From the NCBI GenBank assembly GCA_049521175.1, contig JBEKPB010000003.1:6704-70703 (forward strand): a DNA stretch of 64,000 nt. The letters run 5' to 3'. Below are positions 3,553-50,174 of this stretch, in pieces. The translations under genes were made by a program, and so were the position numbers. Source of the stretch: Candidatus Limnocylindrales bacterium. Its GTDB lineage: Bacteria; Chloroflexota; Limnocylindria; Limnocylindrales; CSP1-4. Numbering within the stretch: the stretch's first letter is position 1; the number at the start of each line of letters is the position of its first letter. Under the pieces are notes generated by a model. The model saw only the letters and a program-made list of their open reading frames with translations, was not told the origin of the DNA and made no database searches.

Positions 3553-5325
<1,773 letters not shown>

Positions 5326-5469
5326 CTGTCGTCCTCTTTGCGATCTCGCGCCGCGCCCCTCGAGGCGCCTCATTGTATGTGGGGTACGGATCAGGTTTCG
5401 GCGTCTTGCTGGCTGAGGCCCGACCAGGCACGATGACATCGCAACAAGTCCAACGAAGCGAGGGATGAA

Positions 5470-5958
5470 ATGGCCAGCGACACCTTGCGCGAACAACTGC
5501 TCGCGCTGATCGACGGACACGGCGCTCATATGCCGTTCGACGCCGCCGTGGCGGACTTCCCGGATGACGCCATCAACAGGTTTCCGCCCAACGTCGCGTA
5601 CACGCCGTGGCACCTGCTCGAGCACATCCGGATCGCCCAGAGAGACATCCTCGACTACATCCGCGACCGGGCCTATCTCGCGCCAACGTGGCCGGAGGAG
5701 TACTGGCCGGAGCGCGACGCCACCGCGACGCCGGAGCAATTCGCGCGGACGGTCGAGGGCTTCAAGGCCGACCGGACGGCACTGCACGATCTGGTGGTCG
5801 ATCCGACCACCGACCTCCTGGCGACGATCCCGAACACCCCCGGCCACACCATCCTGCGCGAGGTGCGTCTGGTCGGCGACCACAACGCCTACCACATCGG
5901 CGAGTTCGCGATCCTCCGTCAGGTCATGGGGACCTGGCCGGCGGGCCGAAAGGAGTAG
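5470..5958 (+). CDS. DinB/YfiT-like (DinB_2 superfamily) protein
   Basis: 162 aa with conserved His pattern (WHLLEH...H...YH) typical of DinB_2 four-helix-bundle metalloproteins; GGAGG-like RBS (gagggatg). Confidence 0.65.
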   Translation: MASDTLREQLLALIDGHGAHMPFDAAVADFPDDAINRFPPNVAYTPWHLLEHIRIAQRDILDYIRDRAYLAPTWPEEYWPERDATATPEQFARTVEGFKADRTALHDLVVDPTTDLLATIPNTPGHTILREVRLVGDHNAYHIGEFAILRQVMGTWPAGRKE

Positions 5959-6089
5959 CGGCTCGAGGCGTGGGTGGGCGCCCATCTCGAAGCATGAGCG
6001 ATGGCGCCCGTTTGCCGCGTGAGGGATCGTCCCGACCTGAACACCGACCTTGCCTGCGGGGTACGATCTCGAGGCGAGGAGGTTTCGTC

Positions 6090-6704
6090 ATGTCGATCGC
6101 CCTGCTCCTGGTTGCATGTGTGCTGATCGGCGTGTCCGCCTATCTGGTGACGCGTGTCGCCGCGTTCAGTGTGGTCGCGCCGGTGTCGGTTCAGCTCCCA
6201 CACAGCGGACCCGATGATCCCGGACGGATTGAAGCCACCTCGGGCATCCTCGGCTTTTCGCCGGTCGGGGAGCTGATGATCCCGACCCCTGGCGCGACGA
6301 AGGGCCCGAGATTGCTGTCAACGCTCGTGGACACCGATCGCGTCTCGGTAGTCCTCGCGACATCCCCAAACGGGGGATGGCTGCTGACCGCGTGGCCGGA
6401 TGGCTCGTACGTCAAGACCAGATGCCCGAGACCGTACATCTTCCCGTCGGCACGCCTCTCCGAAGCCGTCCTTCTCTCGGGAGCGACGTTGCCGGAGGCC
6501 TACTCACGCCACCGGAAGGCGGTCGCGGAGATCAGCGTCCAGCGTGGCGAGCCGGTCCGCGTCGCAGATCCCGACGGCGTTCTCGAGTGCTTCAAGACCG
6601 CGAACCAGACCGCGAAGCGGCTACTCATGCGAACGTTGTTCGTGGTCATGCCCCTGGGGGTCGCTTCCTGGGTGGTTCTGGTCGTCGCGTACCTGATTCA
6701 GTAG
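6090..6704 (+). CDS. Hypothetical membrane protein
   Basis: ATG at 6090 with upstream GAGGAGG; N- and C-terminal hydrophobic helices; no recognisable domain. Confidence 0.45.
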   Translation: MSIALLLVACVLIGVSAYLVTRVAAFSVVAPVSVQLPHSGPDDPGRIEATSGILGFSPVGELMIPTPGATKGPRLLSTLVDTDRVSVVLATSPNGGWLLTAWPDGSYVKTRCPRPYIFPSARLSEAVLLSGATLPEAYSRHRKAVAEISVQRGEPVRVADPDGVLECFKTANQTAKRLLMRTLFVVMPLGVASWVVLVVAYLIQ

Positions 6705-6759
6705 GCTCGGTCAGTCTCACTCAACCACGGACGTGCCCAGCGCGTTATGCGGCATCCGC

Positions 6760-7113
6760 CTAACAGGTGACGTGGAGGATCGCGTACACGTCGTCCGGCT
6801 CGATGTCGGAGAGCAGGCGGCATGCTTCGCTGGTGGGAAGTGCCTCGATGGCGATCCCCCGTCGCGCTGCTTCCTCGCCCAATTCGGGAGCGATGGGCAG
6901 TTGCCCACGGGCGCCCGTGCCGATGATCAGCCGCTTGCCTCCCCATGGGATCTCCTCGGCGGCGGTTAGCGGTGTGTGCCCAAACCGGCCGGCAAGTGCC
7001 TTCGAAGGGCCCTTGTCCCGTTTGCGGATCCGTCCGCCTTCGATGACCACATCGCGGTGATAGTGCTCGCCCTCGATCTTCAGTTCTCCGAACGAGACCA
7101 GCTTAGCTTTCAC
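6760..7113 (-). CDS. Mth938-like domain protein
   Basis: 117 aa with KRLIIGTGARGQLPIAPEL...GIAIEALPT, a pattern typical of Mth938-like (DUF498-type) proteins. Confidence 0.5.
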   Translation of the reverse strand: MKAKLVSFGELKIEGEHYHRDVVIEGGRIRKRDKGPSKALAGRFGHTPLTAAEEIPWGGKRLIIGTGARGQLPIAPELGEEAARRGIAIEALPTSEACRLLSDIEPDDVYAILHVTC

Positions 7114-7323
7114 AGCCGCATCTTCTCACGGGCGTATCGAGGCGGAGCGCGGAGACTTGTTCCATGGGCGGGCGGCACGTCGGTCCGCGAGGCACACCTG
7201 AACGAGTCGTTCGGCGCACCGTCGGCAGATGAGGGCTACGATTCGACCGAAGCACGTCGTTCAGCGCCCTGGGGCAGGCGCGCGCTGGCTGCGTGGCCGG
7301 CGGATCGAGCGAGGAGCAGAGCC

Positions 7324-8115
7324 ATGAAGACGGTCACTTCGAAGGACGGCACAACCATTGCGCTCGACCAGTGGGGGTCGGGGCCGGCGCTCATCTTGGT
7401 GGGCGGTGCACTCGCCACTCGATCGGCGTCTCCGCCGGTGGCCGCATTGCTGGCGCCCCATTTGACCGTGTTCGGGTATGACCGGCGCGGCCGTGGCGAC
7501 AGCGGCGACACGATGCCGTACGCCGTCGAGCGCGAGGTCGACGACATACAGGCGCTCATCACCGCGGCGGGCGGCCGGGCCTCCCTCTTCGGCCACTCGT
7601 CCGGCGCCGCGCTCGCCCTCGAGGCCGTCTCCCGTGGCCTCGCGGTGCAGAAGCTGGCGTTGTACGAGCCTCCATTCATCGTCGACGGCGGCCGGGCTCC
7701 GCTGCCAGAGGATTTCGTGGCGCACCTTACCGATCTGGCGGCTTCAGGACGTCGACGGGAAGCCCTCGAGTACTTCATGACGACGGCGATGGGTATGCCG
7801 CCTGCAGCCGTAAGCGGCATGCAGAGGGATCCAGGCTGGTCTGGTTTCGAGGCGATTGCACAGACGCTGGCGTACGACGGAGCAATCCTTGGCAACCACA
7901 TGTCCGGCGCGCCGCTCGAGGCCGGGGAGTTCGCCGCGGTTACGGTGCCAACGCTGGTGATGGACGGCAGTAACAGCCCGGGCTGGCAGCACACCTCTGT
8001 GCGCGCACTCGTGGCGGCCTTGCCCAACGCAAGGCACATGACCCTCGAGGGTCAAGCGCACGGCGCGGCGCCGGAGGTCCTCGCTCCCGTGTTGGTCGAG
8101 TTCTTCACCAGCTGA
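7324..8115 (+). CDS. Alpha/beta-fold hydrolase
   Basis: Trimmed to ATG at codon 117 of track ORF 6976..8115. GHSSG nucleophile elbow, and late Asp/His consistent with a catalytic triad. Confidence 0.75.
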   Translation: MKTVTSKDGTTIALDQWGSGPALILVGGALATRSASPPVAALLAPHLTVFGYDRRGRGDSGDTMPYAVEREVDDIQALITAAGGRASLFGHSSGAALALEAVSRGLAVQKLALYEPPFIVDGGRAPLPEDFVAHLTDLAASGRRREALEYFMTTAMGMPPAAVSGMQRDPGWSGFEAIAQTLAYDGAILGNHMSGAPLEAGEFAAVTVPTLVMDGSNSPGWQHTSVRALVAALPNARHMTLEGQAHGAAPEVLAPVLVEFFTS

Positions 8116-8153
8116 AGAGGGCTGATCTGGCCGGCTCCGCGTCGCGGCGCGAC

Positions 8154-8867
8154 GTGGCGGATACGTTGGATCAGGTCTCTGCGCGGCGCGCACGCCGGCG
8201 CATACTGGACTCGATGTCCATCGGATCGCGGCTGCCGGCGTTCTCGTTGCTCGGACTGGTGCTCATCGCCGCCGCACTGCTCATCGCCGGGTGGGGCGTG
8301 GCTGTGGGAGTGGGCATCATCGCCGGCTCCCTGCTTGGACTGGCCAACTTCCTCGCCTTCCTGGGTTTGAGCTCGCGTTCGCGGGGCGGCAGTTCGGTCA
8401 GCTGGCTGTCTCGCGGCGGCCCGTCATCCGGGCCCGACCATGAGCTCCTGCAGCGCTTCGGTCGCAACTCGATGCGCGTTGCAGGAGTGGATGCGGGCAC
8501 CTTGCGCCGAGTCATCGCGGTCGGTAGCAGTGTGGAGGCAGGCAGCGCGCGCGTCGAAATCGTCGCCGTGGAGATCCGCGATGACGGCGGGATCGCCACC
8601 CTAGTCGCACACACGCGACCGCCAGTTGGTCACGTCGGGCATTTCGTCGAGGTCACGGTCTCCGACGACGCGGGGACCGCATACGTCGCCTCGGGCCAGG
8701 GTTCCGGCGGATCCAGCACGAATGCCAGCCGCCACGAGATCCGGTTCGCGCCCCGGCCGCCTGACGGCGCCCACACGCTCATTGTCCATGTCGCCTCGTT
8801 CGCCGATCCGTTCCCGGGTGTCGCAGCCCGGCTCGACGGCCCCTGGGAGTTCCGCGTGCCGCTCTGA
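8154..8867 (+). CDS. Hypothetical membrane-anchored protein
   Basis: GTG start; N-terminal TM hairpin (LLGLVLIAAALLIAGWGVAVGVGIIAGSLLGLANFLAFLGL) followed by a soluble domain of unknown type. Confidence 0.45.
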   Translation: MADTLDQVSARRARRRILDSMSIGSRLPAFSLLGLVLIAAALLIAGWGVAVGVGIIAGSLLGLANFLAFLGLSSRSRGGSSVSWLSRGGPSSGPDHELLQRFGRNSMRVAGVDAGTLRRVIAVGSSVEAGSARVEIVAVEIRDDGGIATLVAHTRPPVGHVGHFVEVTVSDDAGTAYVASGQGSGGSSTNASRHEIRFAPRPPDGAHTLIVHVASFADPFPGVAARLDGPWEFRVPL

Positions 8868-9043
8868 TCGGCCGACCGCCCGCGCCCAGATGATTCGGTT
8901 CGTTGGCTCGGTGGTCTCAGACGACGCGACGTGGTCCATAGGCCGTCGGAGGGCGCAGCCGACGAGCCCGAACCCTGCGAAGATCCACCTGTGCAGGCGC
9001 TGACGTTGCCGGGGATTCCGACGCGAGTGCCCCCGGTGCCGGC

Positions 9044-9967
9044 GTGACGCGGCGGGGGCTGGTCCTCTTCGGCCTGATGTCGCTGATCTGGGGCATCCCG
9101 TACCTGTTCATTCGGGTTGCAGTCGCCGAGATCTCACCGGCCACCCTGGTCTTCGCTCGGACCGCGATCGCCGCCCTGATCCTGCTTCCGATTGCTCTCC
9201 TTCGGACCGATTTCCGGTCCGTGCTCGCGCGCTGGCGCTGGATTGTCGCTTTCGCGGTCGTCGAGATCGGAGTGCCGTGGGTGCTTCTCGGGTCGGCGGA
9301 ACAGCACATCACGAGCTCACTCGCGGGCCTTCTCGTGGCCGGGGTGCCGCTGGTCGCCACGGTCATCGCAGTGGGCACGGGCGGTCGGGATCGGATCGGC
9401 GCCACCGGCGTTCTCGGGCTGCTCGTGGGACTCGTCGGGGTCGCGGCGATCGTCGGGCTGAACCTGGGCGCGTCGAATGGCCCGGCGATCCTCGAGGTCG
9501 GGGTCGTCGTCATCGGCTACGCGCTCGGGCCTGCCATCCTGGCCCGCCGGCTCGCCGGTTTGCCGGCCGTCGCCGTCATGGCGCTCTCGCTCTCGATGTG
9601 CGCCCTGGTGTACGCGCCGATCGCCGTCCTTCAGCGACCCACGACGATGCCCAGCGCGGCCGCCCTCGGCGCGGTCGCGGTCCTCGGATTGGCCTGCACC
9701 GCGGCGGCGTTCCTCCTCTTCTCCGCACTGATCGACGAGATCGGCCCGGTTCGCGCAACCGTGATCACCTACCTCAACCCGGCGGTCGCGGCGCTGCTCG
9801 GTGTGGCGGTGCTGAACGAGTCGTTCACAGTCGGGATGGCCGCGGGCTTTGGGCTGGTGATCCTGGGCTCCGTGCTCGCCACGCGGCCGGCCGGCGCACG
9901 GATCCCGCGACTCTCGGGTCGTTCCGGCAATCGATCCGACGCCGATCGCACCGAGATCCCCGTCTGA
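9044..9967 (+). CDS. EamA/DMT-superfamily transporter
   Basis: Ten predicted TM helices in two EamA-like repeats (WGIPYLFIRVAV...). Confidence 0.75.
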   Translation: MTRRGLVLFGLMSLIWGIPYLFIRVAVAEISPATLVFARTAIAALILLPIALLRTDFRSVLARWRWIVAFAVVEIGVPWVLLGSAEQHITSSLAGLLVAGVPLVATVIAVGTGGRDRIGATGVLGLLVGLVGVAAIVGLNLGASNGPAILEVGVVVIGYALGPAILARRLAGLPAVAVMALSLSMCALVYAPIAVLQRPTTMPSAAALGAVAVLGLACTAAAFLLFSALIDEIGPVRATVITYLNPAVAALLGVAVLNESFTVGMAAGFGLVILGSVLATRPAGARIPRLSGRSGNRSDADRTEIPV

Positions 9968-10096
9968 CGTCTCCCGGCGGTCATGATTCGGCGCTGTCGG
10001 CCCGGTTTGGCTCGGGGGCGTAGAAGGCCGTCGTTCGTTGGCTATTGGCCCATCTCGAAGCGTTGACCTCGCTGCATTACGACTCGGACCCGCCCG

Positions 10097-10705
10097 TCAG
10101 ACCCCGACGGGCTCGCGCACGAGCACGACCGTGGTTCGGCCGGGCTGCCATTCGCCGTACATCACGAGAACCTTCTCGAGCACTGTGTCGACACCGAGCC
10201 GCTCGCGAACCTGGGCGTTCTCATACGGGAACACGACGTCTTTGATGCGAAGCATGGCGGCCGCGAGGTCGGCAACGATCTTCTGGCTGCCCACGACGAG
10301 GATCAGCCGGCCGGCCCCCGCGGCGTACGCGCCGAGCTGGCTTCCGGTGGCCGACGCGGCAACCAGGGTGCCATCCTCGGTCACCGCCGCCACGCTGCCG
10401 AGCATGTAGTCGGGCGCCGCGATGAGCTTGCGGATCTCGCGAGCCTGGGTCTTGCGATCCATCGCGAAGTAGCGCGGCCGCAACGCATCGTAGCGACCCG
10501 AATCGATGAGCTCGGCGAAGAGGCCGACATCCTCGAGAGTCTTCGACTTGCCCGAATGGACCTCGGCGCCGACCGGGATCATCTCGAGCACGACCTTCCG
10601 GGCCTCATCGGCCGAGTCCACGACGATCGTGTCGATGTTGTGCGAGCGGAGGGCTGCGGCCACTCGTTCGATCCGGTCGTCTGGACTGCTGGCCTGGCTG
10701 GTCAT
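10097..10705 (-). CDS. LUD-domain protein (LutC/YkgG-like)
   Basis: 202 aa with lactate-utilisation LUD-domain signature blocks; start overlaps the tetR stop (ATGA). Confidence 0.6.
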   Translation of the reverse strand: MTSQASSPDDRIERVAAALRSHNIDTIVVDSADEARKVVLEMIPVGAEVHSGKSKTLEDVGLFAELIDSGRYDALRPRYFAMDRKTQAREIRKLIAAPDYMLGSVAAVTEDGTLVAASATGSQLGAYAAGAGRLILVVGSQKIVADLAAAMLRIKDVVFPYENAQVRERLGVDTVLEKVLVMYGEWQPGRTTVVLVREPVGV

Positions 10706-11376
10706 TGCATGCTCCTGGTTTGGGTGGTTGGCCTGGCGAGTCGTCGCATCGCGATCATCATCTGGCGAGGGCCCGGGGGCGGTGGCAGTCGGCTCGCGCC
10801 TTCACTCCGGAAACCGTCGAGCATCAACCCGACGAAACGCTTCCATGCACCCGGCGCGGCCGGCCCGGCAGCCCCGACGACACCGGCGTTCGCCATGAGG
10901 AGCACCACCAGGTCCTCCGGGACGAAGTCGGCTCGCAAAGTCCCCTCTTCCTGGGCGCGCCCGATCAGTCGCACCGACAGTTCGTACCCGCGGGCGCGAT
11001 GCTCTTCCAGTCTCTTGGAGTTCGAGAAAACCCTCGTCAGGACGTCATTCAAGCCTCGGTCGGCGGCTTGCATCGAGCAGATGCGTTCGGCATAGGCGCA
11101 GAAGCCCGACCATCCGTCCGAGGCCTCGAGCGCCTTCTCGGCAGCCTCGGCGTACTCCTCCAGTCTCCGCTCGAAACAGGCCGCGATCAGGTCCTCGCGT
11201 GTCGGAAACCGGCGGTAGAGGGTGGCGATCCCCACGCCCGCATGCTGTGCGACATCCTCGAGCGGAACGTCCAAGCCGCGCTCGGCGAAGTCCGCTTGAG
11301 CGGCTTCCACGATCCGCAACCTGTTCCGCTCCGCGTCGACCCTGAGCCGCGCCGTCTCTTCGTTGTCCCGTTGCAT
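10702..11376 (-). CDS. TetR-family transcriptional regulator
   Basis: N-terminal HTH (RIVEAAQADFAERGLDVPLEDVAQHAGVGIATLYRRFPTREDL) characteristic of the TetR family. Confidence 0.85.
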   Translation of the reverse strand: MQRDNEETARLRVDAERNRLRIVEAAQADFAERGLDVPLEDVAQHAGVGIATLYRRFPTREDLIAACFERRLEEYAEAAEKALEASDGWSGFCAYAERICSMQAADRGLNDVLTRVFSNSKRLEEHRARGYELSVRLIGRAQEEGTLRADFVPEDLVVLLMANAGVVGAAGPAAPGAWKRFVGLMLDGFRSEGASRLPPPPGPRQMMIAMRRLARPTTQTRSMQ

Positions 11377-11468
11377 GGTGCCACTCTACGCGCAACCGGA
11401 GGTCACCCTCCATTTGCAGTACGCTCGGCCCGTTGTCTGAAACCACTCCTTCGCATTTGAGGTACCCG

Positions 11469-12413
11469 ATGAAGGCTTTTGCACTCGAAAGCTCCGACCG
11501 ACCGGCCAGGATCATGGACATCCCGAAGCCGGAAGTCGGCGAAGCGGATGCGCTCGTCGCAGTCAAGGCCGCGAGCGTGAACGGCATCGATGTCTACCAG
11601 GCAATGGGCGCCTTGACCGGGATGATGGAGCACGCATTCCCCACCGTCGTCGGGCGCGACTTCGCGGGCACGGTTGAGTCGGCCGGACCGGGCTTCCGCG
11701 GCTTCGCCGTTGGCGACGCCGTCTTTGGGTTCATCCCGGCGATGCCGCCCCTCAAGAGCGGTGCGTTCGCGGAGTTCGTTCCAGGTGGACCGTCGGCCGT
11801 CCTTGCCCCGAAGCCGGCCGGCCTCGGCTTCAGTGAGGCTGCGGCGCTCCCGCTGGCGGGTTCGGCGGCGCTCGACCTGCTCGAGGCCATCGACGCGAGG
11901 AAGGGTGACATCGTGCTGATCGTCGGGGCCACCGGTGGCGTCGGCAGCTTCGCGGTTCAGTTGGCGGCGCAGCGTGGCCTCAAGGTCATCGCCACCGCGC
12001 TTCCGGACCAGGTCGAATACGTCCGCAGCCTTGGAGCCGCCGACACGATCGACTACTCGGCCGGCAACGTTGCGGCCGCCGTTCGCAGTCGCTATCCCGA
12101 CGGCATCGCGGCGCTCATCGATGTGGTGAATCGGAAGGAGACCCTGCCAGAGCTGACGTCGCTCGTCCGCCAGGACGGCCACGTCGCAACCCTGATGGGA
12201 GCGGCCGACGTCGAGCAGCTCGCGGCCAGTGGGATCAGCGGCACCAACGTGATGGCCGCTCCCACAGCCGAGAAGCTGCGGCTTCTCGCCGGCATGGCGG
12301 CCTCGGGAGAGCTGCGGGTTCAGATTCACGCCACCTTCCCGATCGATCGAGCGGACGAGGCGCTCCAGGCGTTCCAGGCTGGCACTCGCGGCAAGGTGAT
12401 CCTGGCCTTCTGA
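11469..12413 (+). CDS. Zinc-type alcohol dehydrogenase-like / NADPH:quinone oxidoreductase (MDR family)
   Basis: Trimmed to ATG (MKAFAL...) with GAGG RBS. GroES-like N-domain and Rossmann GATGGVGSFAVQLA motif. Confidence 0.8.
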   Translation: MKAFALESSDRPARIMDIPKPEVGEADALVAVKAASVNGIDVYQAMGALTGMMEHAFPTVVGRDFAGTVESAGPGFRGFAVGDAVFGFIPAMPPLKSGAFAEFVPGGPSAVLAPKPAGLGFSEAAALPLAGSAALDLLEAIDARKGDIVLIVGATGGVGSFAVQLAAQRGLKVIATALPDQVEYVRSLGAADTIDYSAGNVAAAVRSRYPDGIAALIDVVNRKETLPELTSLVRQDGHVATLMGAADVEQLAASGISGTNVMAAPTAEKLRLLAGMAASGELRVQIHATFPIDRADEALQAFQAGTRGKVILAF

Positions 12414-40653: not shown

Positions 40654-41670
<1,017 letters not shown>

Positions 41671-41740
41671 CGGCCCGGTCTGGACACCTTCGCCCGGCCC
41701 GGACGAGGAGGCTCGCCCGGGGCCGGGCGGCCATGCCCCA

Positions 41741-42766
41741 GTGCGCCCACTTTTCGCACCGGCGCCGCCCGGCCCGACGCCGTCTGATCCGGCCGTACCC
41801 CGGCCCGCACCCGGCGCGCCCGGCACCACCCAGGTGCGGCCTCCCTCTGCCCCGCCCGGAGTCACCCCGGCCCGGTCGCTCTCCGCCCCGGAACGAATCC
41901 TCCAGCGCCTCGACTGGAAGGTCATCCGCCGTCTCGACGGCGTTCTCCAGGGCGACTACCACAGCCTCTTCCGTGGCAACGGCATCGATCTGGTGGACCT
42001 GCGCGAATACCAGCCCGGCGACGACGTGCGGGCCATCGACTGGAACGTAACGGCGCGGATGGACACGCCGTACGTCCGCGAATACGTCGAGGACCGGGAG
42101 ATCACGGCCTGGTTCCTGCTCGACCTGAGTCCCTCAATCGATTTCGGCAGCGTGGAATCGGAGCGCGTCAAGCGATCAGTCCTGATCGATTTCGTCGCCA
42201 CTCTGGCGCGCCTTCTGACCCGGCGCGGCAACCGGGTAGGCGCGATGTTCTACGGCAGCGCCCTCGAGCGGATCGTTCCGGCGCGAGGCGGACGCGACCA
42301 GGTCCTGCGCCTGATCGACGACCTGATGGACCAACCGCGCCTCTCGAGCGCCCCATTCACGGACCTGGCCCCGCTGCTCGAGGCCGGACATAACACGATC
42401 AAGCGCCGCTCGCTCGTGTTCGTCATCTCCGACTTCATCAGCGTGCCGGGTTGGGAGCGGCCGATGAGCCTGCTCAACCGCCGCCACGAGGTCGTCGCCG
42501 TGCGTCTCTCGGACCCGCGCGAGGTCGCGCTCCCGGACGTCGGGCCGATGATCATGGAAGATGCCGAGACCGGCGAACAGCTGTATGTGGACACCCACGA
42601 CGCCGCGTTCCGGCGCCGGTTCGAGGAGGCGGCGCGCCGGCGCGAGGCCGAGGTATCCGGGGCGTTCAAGCGATCAGGCGTCGAGGCTCTCGCGCTTTCG
42701 ACCGAGGATGACCTCGTGCGCGCCATCGTGCGCATGGCAACCCTCCGCCGCCGGGGCCGGAGGTAG
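41741..42766 (+). CDS. DUF58-domain protein (MoxR-associated, VWA-like)
   Basis: DLREYQPGDDVRAIDWNVTAR motif; Pro-rich N-terminus, so the true start may be later. Confidence 0.8.
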   Translation: MRPLFAPAPPGPTPSDPAVPRPAPGAPGTTQVRPPSAPPGVTPARSLSAPERILQRLDWKVIRRLDGVLQGDYHSLFRGNGIDLVDLREYQPGDDVRAIDWNVTARMDTPYVREYVEDREITAWFLLDLSPSIDFGSVESERVKRSVLIDFVATLARLLTRRGNRVGAMFYGSALERIVPARGGRDQVLRLIDDLMDQPRLSSAPFTDLAPLLEAGHNTIKRRSLVFVISDFISVPGWERPMSLLNRRHEVVAVRLSDPREVALPDVGPMIMEDAETGEQLYVDTHDAAFRRRFEEAARRREAEVSGAFKRSGVEALALSTEDDLVRAIVRMATLRRRGRR

Positions 42767-42769
42767 CCG

Positions 42770-43789
42770 ATGTCGTTCATCTGGCCGTTCATGCTGCTCA
42801 CCCTCGCGCTGATCCCGCTCGGCGTCGCGCTCTACTACCTGATCGAGCGTGGGCGGCGCCGTCGCCTCGCGGCCTACGGCGGGTCACTAGTCGCCCAGGA
42901 AACCACTCACCGCACGACGGGGCTGCGCGGCCGCGTCCCGCCGGCGCTGCTGGTCTGCGGGTTGATCGTCATGTCCGTGGCGATGGCCCGGCCGCAGGCC
43001 GTGATAAGCCTGCCGCGGCAGGAGGGCACGGTCATCCTTGCCTTCGACGTCTCCGGCAGCATGGCCGCCACCGATCTCAAGCCGACGCGAATGGATGCCG
43101 CCAAGGCGGCCGCGAAGGACTTCGTGTCGAAGCAGCCATCGAGCGTCACGATCGGGGTGGTGGCGTTCAGCGACGGGGGCATCTCGGTCCAGACGCCTAC
43201 CAACGACCAGGCCACCGTGCTGGCGGCGATCGATCGCCTGGCGCCGCAACACGGAACGTCGCTCGGCCAGGGCATCCTCGCCTCGCTCGACGCCATAGCC
43301 GTCGCAGAGGCCGGCCCCTACGCCAACAACTACTACTCCAACGTCTCGCCCGCGCCGACCGCGGCACCGACGCCAACGCCTGTGCCGTCCGGGACCCACG
43401 CTCCAGCAGTCATAGTCCTACTCAGCGACGGCGAGAACAACGAGAACCCGGACCCGCAGGCGGCTGCCCAGACGGCGGCAGATCGGGGTGTGCGGATCTA
43501 CACGGTGGGCATCGGCAGCCCGTCGGGCACCACGGTGACCATCGATGGCTTCCAGCTCCACACCCAGCTCGACCAGGCCACCCTGCAAGGGATCTCGCAG
43601 ACGACCGGCGGCACCTACTACGCCGCCGCGGACGAGCAGCAGCTCTTTTCGGTCTACGACAACCTCGACACACAGCTGGTCGTCCAGCCCCAGTTGACCG
43701 AGATCACATCGGTGCTGGCGGGCCTGAGCCTGGTGTTGCTCATCGGCGGCGCCCTGACCTCTCTCCTCTGGCTCGGTCGGCTGCTATGA
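42770..43789 (+). CDS. VWA-domain protein, BatA-like (N- and C-terminal TM)
   Basis: MIDAS motif DVSGSM...T and flanking TM helices. GGAGG RBS and a 3-nt gap to the DUF58 gene. Confidence 0.8.
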   Translation: MSFIWPFMLLTLALIPLGVALYYLIERGRRRRLAAYGGSLVAQETTHRTTGLRGRVPPALLVCGLIVMSVAMARPQAVISLPRQEGTVILAFDVSGSMAATDLKPTRMDAAKAAAKDFVSKQPSSVTIGVVAFSDGGISVQTPTNDQATVLAAIDRLAPQHGTSLGQGILASLDAIAVAEAGPYANNYYSNVSPAPTAAPTPTPVPSGTHAPAVIVLLSDGENNENPDPQAAAQTAADRGVRIYTVGIGSPSGTTVTIDGFQLHTQLDQATLQGISQTTGGTYYAAADEQQLFSVYDNLDTQLVVQPQLTEITSVLAGLSLVLLIGGALTSLLWLGRLL

Positions 43790-43802
43790 GGAGGCTTCGC
43801 TG

Positions 43803-44891
43803 ATGGACTTCCTCTGGTCGGATCTCCTCATCCTTCTGCTTATGCTGCCGCTCATGGTGGCCGTATACATCCTGGGTTTGCGCCGGCGGCGCCCGGAGGG
43901 CGTCCGCTATTCGAGCTTGTCCCTGGTCCGCGTCGCGGCGCCGGGCGCGTCGCGGCTGCGGCGGCATCTGCCGTTTGCACTGTTCATCGCCGCGCTCGGT
44001 GCCGCGGTCGTCGCGCTCGCGCGCCCGGTGGCGGTCGTTGCCGTGCCCACGAACCAGACGACGATCATCCTGACGATCGACGTCTCGGGCAGCATGTGTT
44101 CGTCCGACGTCCCGCCCAGCCGTCTCGAGGCCGCCGAAGCCGCCGCGGCCAAATTCATCGACCACCAGGCGTCCTCGACGCGCATCGGGATAGTCGCCTT
44201 CAGCACCTTCGCCGAGCTGGTCCAGGCGCCGACGAACGACAAGCCGACGCTTCTGGCCGCGCTGCAAACCCTCGCCACAGGGCGGCGGACCGCAATCGGC
44301 GACGGCATCCTGGCCTCGATCGACGCCATCGCCGGGGTCGACCCGCTCGTGGCCATGAGCCAGACCGACACGTCGACAGGCACCGCGCCGACGCCGGTGC
44401 CCAAGGGCGATTACGCTCCCGACATCGTCGTCCTGCTCACGGACGGGGCGAGCAACACCGGCACGCCACCGCTCGACGCGGCCCAGCAGGCAGCCGACCG
44501 CGGCGTCCGGATCTACACGATCGGCTTCGGTACCGCGAACGGCGGCAGCCTGAGCCCGACTTGCGCGCCGCAATTCCAGGGTCGCGAACCGGGCGGTGGG
44601 TTTGGCGGAGGCGGGTTCGGCGGTGGTGGTGGTGGCGCCGGCGCCGGCGGAGGTGGGAACTTCCCGCGCGGGATCGACGAGGCCACACTAAAGCAGATCG
44701 CGGCCATGACGGGCGGGACGTACCACCCGGCCACTACCGCAGACGAGCTCCAGAGTGTCTTCGACAACCTCCCGATCAATCTGATCGTCGAGCATCAGAC
44801 GATGGAGGTCAGCGCCGTGTTCGTCGGCTTCGGAGGGTTGCTCGCCGGTCTCGCGATCCTCCTGAGCAAAGCCTGGCGTCCGCTGCCGTAA
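43803..44891 (+). CDS. VWA-domain protein, BatB-like, with a Gly-rich insert
   Basis: MIDAS DVSGSMCSSD; GGGFGGGGFGGGGGGAGAGGGG low-complexity loop; terminal TM. Confidence 0.8.
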   Translation: MDFLWSDLLILLLMLPLMVAVYILGLRRRRPEGVRYSSLSLVRVAAPGASRLRRHLPFALFIAALGAAVVALARPVAVVAVPTNQTTIILTIDVSGSMCSSDVPPSRLEAAEAAAAKFIDHQASSTRIGIVAFSTFAELVQAPTNDKPTLLAALQTLATGRRTAIGDGILASIDAIAGVDPLVAMSQTDTSTGTAPTPVPKGDYAPDIVVLLTDGASNTGTPPLDAAQQAADRGVRIYTIGFGTANGGSLSPTCAPQFQGREPGGGFGGGGFGGGGGGAGAGGGGNFPRGIDEATLKQIAAMTGGTYHPATTADELQSVFDNLPINLIVEHQTMEVSAVFVGFGGLLAGLAILLSKAWRPLP

Positions 44892-45975: not shown

Positions 45976-47184
45976 TCAGACCGCCCAGGCGACGTGCCAG
46001 ACGCGCCATAGCGCGGTGGGGTCCGAGAGCGGGTCGCCGTGGACGAGGCTGAAGTCGGCCGGGCCACCCTCGTGGATGACCCCGGCCTCCGGTTCGGAGA
46101 GCAGCTCTCCGCCTCGCCACGTGGCCGCGCCGAGCGCCTCCCAGGGTTCGAGCCCGACGACCACCAGGCACTCCACTTCCCAGGCCAGCTGGTTTGCCCG
46201 GGTCGACCCGCCGCCGAAGTCGGTACCGGTGGCGATCGCCACGCCAGCCGCGTGCGCCAGCCTGACGCTCTCCTCGGCCCGCTCCTGTCGGGCAAGTATC
46301 CGAGCTCGTCCCTCGGCCGAGGCGAAGCGCGGGATCGACGTCGTCTCGCCGAAGCCCTGCCACGACCGGAATATCGCCAGCGTGGAGACGAGCGTCGTAC
46401 CTTGCCGGGCCATCGCCGCCACCACTTCTGCGTCGAGCTCCATTCCATGCTCGAGAGAGTCGACTCCGGCCGCGACGCCTTCCCGTGCACCGGCCAGGGT
46501 GCCGGAGTGGGCCGTCACCTTGACACCGCGGGCATGGGCGGCGGCGATCACCGGAGCGATCTCGTCGCGAGTCCAGGGCGAGACGCCCGGCTCGGGCCCG
46601 TCCAAGTAGAGCTTGAGGAAATCCGCCCCTTCATCGAGCTGGCCGATCGCGAGTGTCAGCAGCTCGTCCGGAGTTTCAGCCTCGACGGCGCGCGGTCCAG
46701 GCATCGTTCCGGCACGATCCAGCCAGGTGCCCGCGGCCCTGACATACGGGAAGCCGGAGCGGCCGCGCCATCGGTCCCGAACTCCGAGGCTCAGCGCGCG
46801 GAGCTGCCCGTCGACTGGGTCCGCTACCCTGGGCGCTCCTACGTCACGCGCCCAGCGGACGCCGGCCTGAGTCATGAGCCGCCCGTTGTGCTCGGCCACC
46901 GCCAGCAGCCGCTCGGCCGCGTCGTCGATCCGGGCGATCCAATGCGTGCCACCGGGTAGCGTCAAGTGGCTATGGCAGTCCACCATCCCTGGCACGAACG
47001 TCGAGCCGCTCGCGTCGATGATCTCGACGTCCATCGCTCCGCCGGCGTCGGGCTGCGGGCCTTCGTCGTCGCTCGGCCGGATCCACTCGATGACGCCGTC
47101 GACCACGAGGATGCTGACGCCCAACCGCAGCCGGTCGGATCGGCCATCCGCCAGTGCCCCATCGCGATACAGGGTCGCGGTCAT
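45976..47184 (-). CDS. Amidohydrolase-family protein
   Basis: Metal-binding HSH near the N-terminus (MVDCHSHLTLPGG) and downstream His/Asp typical of the amidohydrolase TIM barrel. Confidence 0.8.
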   Translation of the reverse strand: MTATLYRDGALADGRSDRLRLGVSILVVDGVIEWIRPSDDEGPQPDAGGAMDVEIIDASGSTFVPGMVDCHSHLTLPGGTHWIARIDDAAERLLAVAEHNGRLMTQAGVRWARDVGAPRVADPVDGQLRALSLGVRDRWRGRSGFPYVRAAGTWLDRAGTMPGPRAVEAETPDELLTLAIGQLDEGADFLKLYLDGPEPGVSPWTRDEIAPVIAAAHARGVKVTAHSGTLAGAREGVAAGVDSLEHGMELDAEVVAAMARQGTTLVSTLAIFRSWQGFGETTSIPRFASAEGRARILARQERAEESVRLAHAAGVAIATGTDFGGGSTRANQLAWEVECLVVVGLEPWEALGAATWRGGELLSEPEAGVIHEGGPADFSLVHGDPLSDPTALWRVWHVAWAV

Positions 47185-47317
47185 GCATCGATGCTAGCGC
47201 TGATCGGTCAGTTCGGCCGCGGGTTCCCGATTCAACCGCCTAGATTGCTCGCCGGAATCGAGGCCCCGACCACCTCGCGACGGCACGCCATGGAACGCTG
47301 GCGCGCCGTGGCATCGG

Positions 47318-47360
47318 GTCGGGGCGAGAGGATTAGAGGCCGAGATAACAAGCTAACCGC
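47318..47360 (+). repeat. Direct repeat copy A (GTCGGGGCGAGAGGATTAGAGGCCGAGATAACAAGCTA...)
   Basis: About 35/40 identity to copy B at 49568..49610 in the same orientation; downstream of the CpaF-RidA gene and upstream of the amidohydrolase gene. Confidence 0.5.
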
Positions 47361-47531
47361 CAGAGCCGATGCGCTCTCAGCTTGCGGAGGATGCTGGGCA
47401 AGTCGCGCATGACGAGATCTGCGCCGTCGTCGCCAGCGGTCCGCCAGGCGACGAGGCACGTCGGCTGGTCTGGATTCGCCGAAGACAGCGTCTAGGCAAG
47501 GGGGCTTGAGGCCTCAACCACCCCAGCGGGC

Positions 47532-49307
47532 CTATGCCTCGGCGATCACCCCGATCGAGATCCGGAAACCGGCCCGCCGTTGCAGCGGCGGCATCAGCGT
47601 CCCTTGACCAACCGGCGCGTCACCCGGGAACCAGCGCACCCATTCTTCGTTGAACTCGTCGAACTCTGCCGGGTCGCGCAATGACCAGGCTGCCCAGACG
47701 ACCTTGTCCAGCGAGCTTCCCTCAGCCTCAAGTCTCGCCTTGATGTTGCGCAGGCATTGGCTCGTCTGCGGCTTGATCCCTCCGTCGACGACGTGACCAG
47801 TGTCAGGATCGACGGGTCCCATCGACGATACGTAAACCATGCCTCCGGCCTTGACCGCCCGGCCGTAGCCGATGGAGGGTCGGGATGCATCTGGCGGCTG
47901 AAACGTCTCCCGGGCGGCACGCCTCCGCTTGTCGTGGCGCGCCGGGCCCGGTCGCGTGGGGTCTTCGGCAGGAATCCCGAATTCCCCGGGCGGCAGTGTG
48001 ACCCCGGCTTCCTTGAACCTTGTCATGAAGGTCGGCCGGATCCCGGTCGGCTTGAGCATCCCTTCGATGCGTCCGTCTCGAACGCCGGTCTGCTCGAATA
48101 CGAAGATGTCCTGGGTGAGGATGTTGTCTTCTTCGATCCCGTAGACCTCGGTGATGTTGACGATCTTGCGAGAGCCATCCCTGAGACGGGCCGTATGGAC
48201 GATCAGGTCGACGGCCGAGCTGATCTGCTCGCGGATCGATCGTAGCGGCAGCCGATAGCCAGCCATGAGGATCATCGTCTCCAGCCGGCGGAGCATGTCC
48301 GGCGGGCTGTTCGAATGCCCTGTGGACAGCGAGCCGTCCTGGCCCACCGTCATGGCCTGGATCATGTCCAGAGCCTCGCCAGAGCGGCACTCTCCGACGA
48401 TGATCCGGTCGGGCCTCATATGCAGGGCGTTGCGCAACAGATCGCGGATTGTGATCTCGCCCTCGCCCTCGAGATTTGAAGGCCGGGCCTCCAGCGTGAC
48501 CAGATGCTCCTGGTGGAGCTGCAGTTCGGCTGCGTCCTCGATGGTGATGATCCGCTGATCCTCGGGGATGAATGATGAGAGGACATTGAGAGTGGTTGTC
48601 TTGCCGGAACCGGTGCCGCCCGACACGAAGATGTTCAGGCGGGCTTCCACGCAGGCTCGCAGGAAGTCGAACATCTCGGGCGTGGCGGTGCCGAAGCGGA
48701 TCAGGTCGTCGACGGTGAACGGCTTGGCGGAGAACTTCCGGATGGTGATGACCGGTCCGACGACAGATAGCGGCTCGATGATCGCATTGACCCGCGAGCC
48801 GTCGGGCAGGCGGGCGTCAACCCGCGGGCTCGACTCGTCGATACGCCGACCGATCGGGGCGATGATCCGATCGATGATGCGCATGACGTGGTCGTCGTTC
48901 CGGAAGACGACGTTGGTGAGCTCGAGGCGGCCGTTGCGCTCGATGTACACCTGGTGCGGGCCGTTGACCATGATCTCCGTGATCGTGTCGTCGCGGAGGA
49001 GCTCCTCGAGCGGTCCGAGGCCCCTCGCTTCCGCGATCACGTCCTCGATCAGGCGCAGACGTTCATCCCGCGTCATAGCGAACCCGTCCACGGCGATGAT
49101 GCGGTCGACGATCGCCTCGACCTTGCCGTTGACGTCAGTCGCATCGGCGTCTAGTAGCGTGTCGTAGGCTCTGACGACTTCGTCCTGGAGGCGAGCCCTG
49201 ATGTTGGTCAGCGAATCCGACCGAGCTGCACGAACGAGTCCGACTGCGCCGGGACTCGGGGTGTCGGCCCCCTGCTGCACCCGCTCAATTCGCCGAAGCA
49301 GGGACAT
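47532..49307 (-). CDS. CpaF/TadA-type type II/IV secretion-system ATPase translationally fused to a C-terminal RidA/YjgF-family domain
   Basis: Trimmed to ATG at codon 66 (MSLLRRIERV...) with GGGAGG RBS. T2SSE/CpaF signature (Walker A GGTGSGKTT, Asp and His boxes, RPDRIIVGECR). A continuous reading frame then runs through an ~25-aa linker into an ~115-aa domain matching RidA (YGRAVKAGGMVYVSSMGPVDPDTGHVV...QCLRNIKARLEAEG...FRISIGVIAEA), with no in-frame start codon between. Confidence 0.75.
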   Translation of the reverse strand: MSLLRRIERVQQGADTPSPGAVGLVRAARSDSLTNIRARLQDEVVRAYDTLLDADATDVNGKVEAIVDRIIAVDGFAMTRDERLRLIEDVIAEARGLGPLEELLRDDTITEIMVNGPHQVYIERNGRLELTNVVFRNDDHVMRIIDRIIAPIGRRIDESSPRVDARLPDGSRVNAIIEPLSVVGPVITIRKFSAKPFTVDDLIRFGTATPEMFDFLRACVEARLNIFVSGGTGSGKTTTLNVLSSFIPEDQRIITIEDAAELQLHQEHLVTLEARPSNLEGEGEITIRDLLRNALHMRPDRIIVGECRSGEALDMIQAMTVGQDGSLSTGHSNSPPDMLRRLETMILMAGYRLPLRSIREQISSAVDLIVHTARLRDGSRKIVNITEVYGIEEDNILTQDIFVFEQTGVRDGRIEGMLKPTGIRPTFMTRFKEAGVTLPPGEFGIPAEDPTRPGPARHDKRRRAARETFQPPDASRPSIGYGRAVKAGGMVYVSSMGPVDPDTGHVVDGGIKPQTSQCLRNIKARLEAEGSSLDKVVWAAWSLRDPAEFDEFNEEWVRWFPGDAPVGQGTLMPPLQRRAGFRISIGVIAEA

Positions 49308-49567
49308 GACCCACGCCTCCCGCAAGCTCGTGACATACGGCAAGACGCTGGTGATTCTAGCCCTGGCAAGAGCATGACGCGGCTCAGCCGCGTCGTATCC
49401 GCCCGTTGCGCAGAATGCCTCCGGCCGCCACCGCACAAGCAGACTCTGGCGATGGCCGACGAGATGCTCGGATGGCTGCACGAACTCAAGGTGAAGCTCC
49501 ACCCGAGCGCGTCAGTGAGGGCTCAAGGGTGGGCGGAAGCCTGGACTGGTGCTCGATTAGTTGTTGT

Positions 49568-49610
49568 GGTCGGGCGAGAGGACTAGGACCGAGATAACGA
49601 GCTATGCGTC
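49568..49610 (+). repeat. Direct repeat copy B (GTCGGGCGAGAGGACTAGGACCGAGATAACGAGCTA...)
   Basis: Matches copy A at 47318; about 260 nt upstream of the CpaF-RidA start. Confidence 0.5.
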
Positions 49611-49648
49611 GAGGTCGCGAGCAACGGCGCTCTGACGCGTTCCTGGCC

Positions 49649-50020
49649 TCACGACCTGAGGTAGATCGCCCTTCGCTCGCACTCATCGGCGAGGACGCCG
49701 AGACGGCCGACGAGCTCTGCTTCGGCCGCAACCGCGTCCCCTCGGTGCTCCGTTGCCAACGCCCCTCGGGAGGCCGAGATGCTCCCGACCTCAGTCTGAG
49801 CTCTGCTCGCGAAGCCCAAGTCCTCGCGCGCATCGTCCAACTTCCGTTCGGGGTAGTACCTCGTCCACCGCGAAAGCTCCGCGAAGTCCACCTCATCTCG
49901 CGCGTCTCGCCACCGGATCGAGTGCCGTTTTATGACGTCGGCAGCAGCGGCAGCAAGGTCTGCGGCGGCAAGGCGCGCCCGTTCCTCCGCAGCATCGAAG
50001 TCCTGAGTCATTGTCTCCAC
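49649..50020 (-). CDS. Hypothetical acidic protein
   Basis: 123-aa ORF with protein-like D/E/A/R-rich composition and no motif; the opposite-strand ORF looks less protein-like. Confidence 0.3.
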   Translation of the reverse strand: METMTQDFDAAEERARLAAADLAAAAADVIKRHSIRWRDARDEVDFAELSRWTRYYPERKLDDAREDLGFASRAQTEVGSISASRGALATEHRGDAVAAEAELVGRLGVLADECERRAIYLRS

Positions 50021-50174
50021 CTCATCGCCCAGTCGACTCTCCTGGCGGCGTCAACGTTCGCTTGAGGTCGGCCGCCCGTCAAGGGGAGCAGCTCCCACGC
50101 CCACTCCGGCCGTCCCCAGCCACGAAGGTCTGTAGCGGCTCACTCTCGGGCCCCGCCACGCCGAGCCGACCCGG

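Follow-up and report, generated by a model that had tools for sequence, protein, structure and literature searches.

Islands of the staphylococcal cassette chromosome mec (SCCmec) type, which use the serine recombinases CcrAB, consist of tandem co-oriented units with short direct repeats of attachment sequence between them, and some of these units lack a recombinase and are perhaps mobilisable in trans. SCC elements always target the 3' end of rlmH, with cores of 15-18 bp as their repeats; phiRv1 integrates into REP13E12. The Int protein of the Vibrio cholerae phage-inducible chromosomal island-like element (PLE), a large serine recombinase (LSR), recombines into the chromosomal V. cholerae repeats (VCR) (PMC6002521), and the attachment sites of serine integrases are shorter than 50 bp and show partial dyad symmetry around a central dinucleotide (PMC1470463). 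The locus described here lies in a 64-kb stretch of DNA from a Candidatus Limnocylindrales bacterium (Chloroflexota; contig JBEKPB010000003.1, positions 6,704 to 70,703), hereafter the window, in which a gene encoding a CpaF-RidA fusion protein is bracketed by two co-oriented copies of a motif of about 45 bp. These repeats are probably the attachment sites of a family of LSR mobile elements of Limnocylindria-type Chloroflexota, and in the window they appear to form junctions in a decayed composite island.

The two copies lie on the same strand, 2,250 bp apart, at 47314-47361 (copy A, with GTCGGGGCGAGAGGATTAGAGGCCGAGATAACAAGCTA at 47318-47355) and 49566-49611 (copy B, with GGTCGGGCGAGAGGACTAGGACCGAGATAACGAGCTA at 49568-49604), and differ from each other by a few substitutions and two 1-nt indels. 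A degenerate pattern fitting both copies has only these two matches in the window and none in 100 dinucleotide-preserving shuffles, and searches of the window with each half of the motif separately gave no further convincing copy. A profile built from relatives recovered the same two places and nothing else in the window, with E=1.7e-14 for copy A (model positions 3-50) and E=2.2e-8 for copy B. An earlier note on this DNA, made from the sequence alone, had reported imperfect co-oriented repeats of about 40 nt on either side of the CpaF-RidA gene, and both were found where it had placed them. The mutual similarity of the two copies ends at about 40-45 nt, and the longer arms of each are common to copies elsewhere. 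All genes around the repeats are on the minus strand, namely those for an amidohydrolase (45976-47184), CpaF-RidA (47532-49307; 591 aa, with T2SSE ATPase and Ribonuc_L-PSP domains), a 120-aa open reading frame (ORF; 49649-50011) without a Pfam match above threshold, a major facilitator superfamily (MFS) transporter and a ChrB_C protein. Public annotation of identical metagenome contigs gives the same gene boundaries, including the start of CpaF-RidA. Copy A is 177 nt past the CpaF-RidA stop codon and 134 nt ahead of the amidohydrolase ATG, and copy B is 45 nt past the stop codon of the 120-aa ORF and 261 nt ahead of the CpaF-RidA ATG. The distances in the earlier note were thus right, but the copies go with the ends of mobile units rather than with the starts of genes.

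The motif belongs to a widespread family in environmental DNA. A degenerate pattern for the family recovered 95 stretches from peat, fen and permafrost metagenomes, which represent about 78 distinct contexts, and the family consensus in the minus-strand sense of the window is GGCTAGCTTGTTATCTCGGCCTCAAGTCCTCTCGCCCCGACCA. A strict pattern (with NTAG where the dominant form has CTTGAGG) found a single metagenome-assembled genome in the genome collection, Chloroflexi fen_1051, in which two copies lie 128 nt apart at a place unrelated to the window locus. Viral contigs contained no match to the strict or the degenerate pattern, and the related loci L104-L108 gave no copy in about 77 kb. Nearly all copies are intergenic, and neighbouring sites within a locus are co-oriented in 33 of 37 pairs. 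A profile search of the collected sequences returned 105 full, 16 left-only and 20 right-only sites, counts that include some loci more than once because they were recovered from several samples. Left-only sites are conserved through ...TCAAGTCC and then break sharply into unrelated sequence. Right-only sites are unrelated up to about the TCNANTCC box, which precedes TCTCGCC, and continue as TCTCGCCCCGACCA from there.

Two accessory modules accompany the sites in some loci. A conserved left-arm module of about 100 nt (AAGGACCTGGTTTCGGAACGGGCGCGACAGGCACAACGACGAGCTGCCGGCGGCCGTGTCAGAGCG...) lies ahead of the site in eight or nine loci (L008 1285-1458, L046, L067, L012, L049 and L060), and it is often preceded by a degenerate copy of the site, giving tandem sites about 130 nt apart. 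Another module, of about 70 nt and starting with GATCGGGTGATGGTG, begins about 10 nt past the CCA of many full sites (L010, L013, L020, L027, L059, L095 and L070 1710-1780), and in L070 it leads into a second, right-only site.

The link to LSRs comes from the opposite strand of the motif, where long ORFs of 442-516 aa end inside the right arm (...GRGERT*). Their products carry the Resolvase catalytic domain PF00239, together with the Recombinase domain PF07508 in L067, and they are therefore LSRs; at least three subfamilies, with mutual identities of 40-58%, end in this way. LSR homology abuts the right arm only, always on the opposite strand and reading into the arm. Of the distinct full sites, 12 of 76 have such homology beside them, as do 9 of 17 right-only sites and 1 of 15 left-only sites, and this last case is explained by a site close by in L036. 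Three recombinase genes that are still intact, all on long chromosomal contigs, terminate in right-only sites whose left neighbours differ. The right arm holds the last codons of the recombinase in several subfamilies and, in intact integrated elements, is on the element side of the junction, and the motif is therefore carried by the element rather than by its target. Database relatives of these recombinases are labelled Candidatus Limnocylindrales or Chloroflexota, which is also the lineage of the genes in the window. As a separate observation, the consensus motif has a stop codon in all three frames (TGA, TAA and TAG) on the strand read by the recombinase gene, so that any ORF entering the motif from the element side is terminated.

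The architecture of the site was deduced from an intact integrated element of 7.6 kb in locus L109, which splits the gene for an extracytoplasmic function (ECF) sigma factor and encodes a recombinase, a 54-aa ORF, a methyltransferase, a single-stranded DNA-binding protein and a helix-turn-helix protein. At its LSR-proximal junction, flanking sequence is joined to the right arm; its distal junction is a left-only site whose extended left arm is that of copy B, and the two junctions have only a CC dinucleotide in common. When the element is removed by joining 3856 to 11473, a 167-aa ORF for an ECF sigma factor is regained, with both a Sigma70_r2 and an r4_2 domain. The reconstructed target lacks the motif, and its attB spans ...GATGATCCTGCC-CC-AGTTGCGCCGCC.... 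Fusion of the two element ends, on the other hand, yields the full consensus motif within a reconstructed attP of 62 bp, GACGCTTAGCTTGTTATCTCGGCCTCAAGTCCTCTCGCCCCGACCATAACAACCAATCGAGC, and the full motif is therefore an attP-type configuration. The crossover is the CC in ...TCAAGT-CC-TCTCGCC.... The attP of the L109 type has the form TTGTTAT-N13-CC-N13-ATAACAA, with a perfect 7-nt inverted repeat and 14 matches in 30 half-site positions. In the target, the two parts of the split sigma factor gene occupy 3589-3864 and 11476-11720, and the truncated N-terminal part stops at a TGA contributed by the left arm of the element.

In its half-sites, copy B resembles the L109-type site. Each of its arms is 1 nt shorter than the consensus, with 12 rather than 13 nt from the central CC to the outer inverted-repeat motif on both sides, so that the spacing stays symmetric (12+12 nt about CC), and 12 of 29 positions match. 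Copy A, which reads GGCGGTTAGCTTGTTATCTCGGCCTCTAAT-CC-TCTCGCCCCGACCCGA on the minus strand, has an asymmetric right arm and 9 matches in 30 positions. The family as a whole thus has an adjacent LSR in related loci, hybrid junctions that keep one arm of attP and break at a single short crossover, an attB that is restored on removal, and a length of about 40-50 bp with partial dyad symmetry, as serine-integrase attachment sites do; at the window locus itself the LSR is represented only by a 50-codon remnant. Each window copy is a full attP-type site, in which the left and right ends of an element are fused, and not a simple attL or attR scar.

In copy B (minus strand), an alignment to both ends of the L109 element supports this assignment together with the profile match and the half-site analysis: its left part aligns with the distal end of L109, and its right part with the recombinase-proximal end. 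It is of the L109/L044 recombinase type. The site continues into an extended left arm at 49612-49638 (minus strand; GCGTCAGAGCGCCGTTGCTCGCGACCT...), which is the conserved distal end of the element family and has homologues in L008, L012/L029, L046, L049, L060 and L109. On the other side, at 49428-49574 on the plus strand, lie the last 50 or so codons of an LSR gene, which read into the right arm of copy B as they do in intact elements. This remnant matches the recombinase of L041 (56% over 50 aa, E=1e-11) and that of L044 (79% over 29 aa, E=5e-11) in tblastn, and at the nucleotide level it is 80-84% identical to the recombinase 3' ends of L044, L041, L036 and L070. At about 49437 the sequence switches from the remnant to the native upstream region of CpaF-RidA (49308-49437, minus strand), which is outside the repeat, is common to orthologues and is homologous to the region upstream of the L006 orthologue (73% over 132 nt) and to those of L003-5. 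Annotators should note that the "intergenic" stretch of 340 nt ahead of CpaF-RidA consists partly of a recombinase pseudogene and partly of an attachment site.

Copy A (minus strand), assigned from the profile match, the pattern searches and the half-site analysis, comprises a left arm as in copy B, the CC crossover and a right arm of a different class. Its extended right arm at 47267-47313 (minus strand) is of another type than that of copy B; site and flank together are 82% identical over 95 nt to L029, and the same flank class occurs in L012/L029, L099 and L082. A weak tblastn match suggests that this extended right arm is probably what remains of another recombinase gene's 3' end. The composite array also takes in the 120-aa ORF, outside the pair of repeats: with its short flanks (49639-50052, minus strand) this ORF is the terminal cargo of a neighbouring unit that ends at copy B, and it is 83.6% identical over 414 nt to L029. 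The 2.25-kb unit from copy B to copy A has CpaF-RidA as its cargo.

A 357-kb contig of a close relative, L104, has an MFS gene 94.9%, a ChrB_C gene 91.8% and an amidohydrolase gene 85% identical to those of the window, in the order ChrB_C-MFS and then amidohydrolase-DUF2277, with a spacer of 80 nt between the MFS and amidohydrolase genes. It thus lacks a block of about 2.96 kb (47210-50174) that contains the 120-aa ORF, both repeats and CpaF-RidA, and no attachment site was found in it. In L029, 1.46 kb of other genes separate the homologue of the 120-aa ORF from a single site beyond them, whose left arm is like that of copy B and whose right flank is like that of copy A; the 2,250-bp unit from copy B to copy A is thus an indel with the repeats at its edges. 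The layout of the window is found less decayed in L094, where a tandem array runs from an intact element through a full site to an LSR stub. The suggestion in the earlier note that the repeats could be att-like scars of an inserted cassette was therefore right in essence, since they are LSR recombination sites, the block is absent from L104 and L029 has a single site, but they are not a simple attL/attR pair. Elsewhere in the two chromosomes, a cluster of genes for a MoxR AAA ATPase, a DUF58 protein and two BatA/VWA proteins (window 40654-44891) is also kept in L104, and the stretch between this cluster and the amidohydrolase gene differs, L104 carrying a two-component system and a lactonase-like gene there.

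The most probable reading is as follows. An integrated element has the right arm (TCTCGCCCCGACCA...) at one end, containing the last codons and stop codon of an outward-reading LSR gene, and the left arm (...GCTAGCTTGTTATCTCGGCCTCAAGT) at the other, and strand exchange takes place at the CC dinucleotide between the arms. The full motif of about 45 bp is the two arms fused, the attP configuration of excised circles and of joints where elements lie in tandem. The island between the MFS and amidohydrolase genes then consists of the unit with the 120-aa ORF, copy B, the CpaF-RidA unit, copy A and the short stub of a third unit, and the middle unit, its LSR reduced to 50 codons, now carries CpaF-RidA with its own promoter. 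We infer that the array originated by tandem integration followed by deletion, although the intact attP-type joints may instead come from recombination between related elements, and that CpaF-RidA was captured in place of most of the recombinase gene; the 2.25-kb unit may still be movable in trans.

Several observations weigh against this interpretation. Recombination of attP with attB by an LSR would by itself leave no intact attP in a chromosome, and the joint between tandem elements is the explanation that we propose for the sites seen here. Adjacent LSR homology was not detected at 64 of the 76 distinct full sites, many of which are on short contigs, and at 10 loci a left-only site is followed 1-2 kb further on by a full site, a pattern that the simple model does not explain. 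Divergence from L104 in the intergenic sequence is too great for the boundaries of the insertion to be placed, and L029 is another chromosomal locus than the window, whose site joins a left arm like that of copy B to a right flank like that of copy A and is not a strict empty site. The profile found no outer junctions of the window island, neither a right-only site near the MFS gene nor a left-only site near the amidohydrolase gene. As there is no intact LSR gene in the window, current activity there cannot be claimed.

Alternatively, the sites could belong to an integron-like or SCC-like cassette system, in which units of one or two genes are moved between identical sites by an LSR acting in trans and so build co-oriented arrays. 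We regard this as unlikely, even though co-oriented arrays with a spacing of 0.6-4 kb do occur (with contents such as a chromate transporter, a MOSC protein, a secreted repeat protein and a GNAT-like gene), the unit from copy B to copy A behaves as a repeat-bounded indel, and CpaF-RidA orthologues are found in unrelated contexts in relatives. LSRs are not known to recombine a pair of identical attP-type sites, and the half-sites and L109 are evidence of ordinary attP x attB integration, in the latter case of a 7.6-kb element with its own recombinase. Moreover, many of the apparent cassettes contain LSR stubs and hence look like decayed elements, and the CpaF-RidA orthologues elsewhere lack the sites. 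It is similarly unlikely that Limnocylindria shuffle genes with attP-type sites as portable cassette boundaries, single chromosomal genes like CpaF-RidA being captured, excised as small circles and re-inserted at further sites of this type by a recombinase acting in trans. If true, such serine-recombinase gene shuffling would be a functional analogue of integrons based on a different recombinase family, and far more interesting than a degraded island. The sites are not integron attC sites, as the motif is non-palindromic, its GTTATCT and AGATAAC strings fall outside the RYYYAAC...GTTRRRY cores, and the recombinases are of the serine type.

Even less probable is a generic repeat similar to repetitive extragenic palindromic (REP) sequences or miniature inverted-repeat transposable elements (MITEs), which would spread by its own means and which LSR elements would merely target. 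Such a precedent exists in an LSR that recombines attP with a site in a dispersed repeat (PMC6002521), and the many copies of the present motif lie in unrelated and mostly intergenic contexts and in all orientations. The earlier note had taken many dispersed copies in non-homologous contexts as the sign of such a generic element. Copies of this kind do exist, in about 78 contexts, but a generic REP element is not implied because they are clustered, co-oriented and tied to recombinase genes. The recombinase's last codons lie in the right arm on the element side of the junctions, the ECF sigma gene targeted in L109 lacks the motif, and the motif itself has neither a palindrome nor a target-site duplication. 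Other marks of a REP or MITE were likewise lacking, with no hairpin beyond chance and only two copies in the 64 kb of the window against none in the approximately 77 kb of L104-L108.

CpaF-RidA has upstream signals of its own. The protein matches PF00437 and PF01042, with a weak match to PF27713, and it belongs to a conserved family of thousands of homologues with identities of 72-87%. No tadB or tadC adjoins this solitary gene, and its neighbourhood differs in every relative examined; orthologues at 80-87% identity are in entirely different gene contexts without a copy of the motif. In L006 and L007, a weak inverted string resembling the right arm lies just past the CpaF-RidA stop codon and is probably due to chance. 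In L003-L005, a 47-aa Flp pilin gene lies directly 3' of CpaF-RidA, and this gene is absent from the downstream spacer of CpaF-RidA in the window. The G+C content is 62-65% over window positions 47800-49400, across CpaF-RidA, compared with 69-72% in the flanking genes. A promoter-like box, GGGCTAGAATC (GGGGCTAGAATC), is located at 49353-49363 on the minus strand, about 45 nt upstream of the CpaF-RidA ATG. The box GGGGCTA(G/T)AATC and a leader ending in the Shine-Dalgarno sequence GGGAGG precede every CpaF-RidA orthologue (boxes at L003 5947-5958, L006 5807-5818 and L007 5313-5324), including those in loci without the motif.

A duplicated promoter, operator or cis-regulatory RNA common to the amidohydrolase and CpaF-RidA genes, as the earlier note had also proposed from the position of both copies upstream of a minus-strand gene in the same orientation, is contradicted and can be given hardly any weight, because every orientation relative to neighbouring genes occurs in the family and is random, the box and leader of CpaF-RidA are separate from the motif and kept in orthologues that lack it, the amidohydrolase genes of L104-L108 have no upstream motif, and the copies have no sigma-70-like promoter or terminator, no Rfam match and only shuffle-level folding. 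The scan for sigma-70-like promoters and terminators found none. Structured RNA was ruled out by the Rfam and folding results: there was no Rfam match at gathering thresholds in the whole window, only two weak and unrelated matches at E<=10 around the repeats, neither of them on a repeat copy, and no match at E<=1 in six related loci. Neither copy folds better than shuffled sequence on either strand (z from -0.66 to +1.93), and an alignment fold, in which the minus-strand coordinates were wrong for four loci, gave three invariant pairs and no covarying pairs. A small coding gene was rejected as well, since the family tolerates changes in all frames and the window copies differ by the two 1-nt indels.

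The right arm has a peculiar resemblance to a tRNA. The sequence TCNANTCCTCTCGCCCCGACCA mimics the 3' end of tRNA-Pro, with T-loop, T-stem, acceptor strand, A73 and CCA, examples being window 47314-47335 and 49566-49586 and L070 1765-1806, and some right-only sites also carry a matching 5' T-stem strand. One right-only site, taken as left neighbour plus arm, is 87.5% identical over 32 nt to tRNA-Pro in all 5,426 E. coli genomes. The stop codon of the recombinase is the reverse complement of the T-loop-like TCA in the right arm. ARAGORN found no tRNA or tmRNA in the window and no tRNA at any right-only site at its default and 90% thresholds, with dubious calls only at 80%. A tRNA-gene-targeting island was thus not retained as an explanation, there being no bona fide tRNA gene at an island end in the ARAGORN results.

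The kind of system is ordinary, consisting of integrase attachment sites and a degraded island, and no description of it in this lineage was found in the literature searched. What it adds is a sequence-level definition of a serine-integrase family, with both arms, the crossover dinucleotide, one reconstructed attB and several recombinase subfamilies, in a host lineage that is abundant and uncultured in soil and peat. Sets of attP, attB and integrase are what genome-engineering screens seek. The results also explain the variable-region setting of CpaF-RidA and its neighbours in this genome. Two features are unusual, namely the persistence of intact attP-type sites in chromosomes and the position of the recombinase stop codon inside a site that resembles the 3' end of tRNA-Pro.

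Compared with the classical serine integrases (phiC31, Bxb1, phiRv1, A118, SPbeta and the skin element), the present family has a Resolvase-domain recombinase of similar kind (440-520 aa), a site of about 42-50 bp with a 2-bp crossover and partly symmetric half-sites, and a recombinase gene beside attP. As with those integrases, integration can take place inside a protein-coding gene, here the ECF sigma factor gene of L109, whose ORF is restored on removal. No recombination directionality factor was identified in these elements. The family differs from the classical integrases in having the recombinase stop codon within the site, a right arm like the 3' end of tRNA-Pro, many different target arms, and intact attP-type sites that persist in chromosomes, often beside recombinase stubs. 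With SCCmec islands the window locus shares tandem co-oriented units divided by direct repeats of attachment sequence, some of them without a recombinase of their own and perhaps mobilisable in trans; unlike in SCC, the repeat is a full two-armed site and the targets vary. As for PLE Int with VCR and phiRv1 with REP13E12, a serine integrase is tied to a family of repeated chromosomal sequences; in those systems, however, the repeat is the target, whereas here the element carries it and a unique gene is the only target reconstructed. Like the attC arrays of integrons, the co-oriented sites divide short units of one or two genes, but integrons employ a tyrosine recombinase acting on a folded, single-stranded palindromic attC with a GTTRRRY core, while the present sites are non-palindromic, depart from that core and are linked to serine recombinases.

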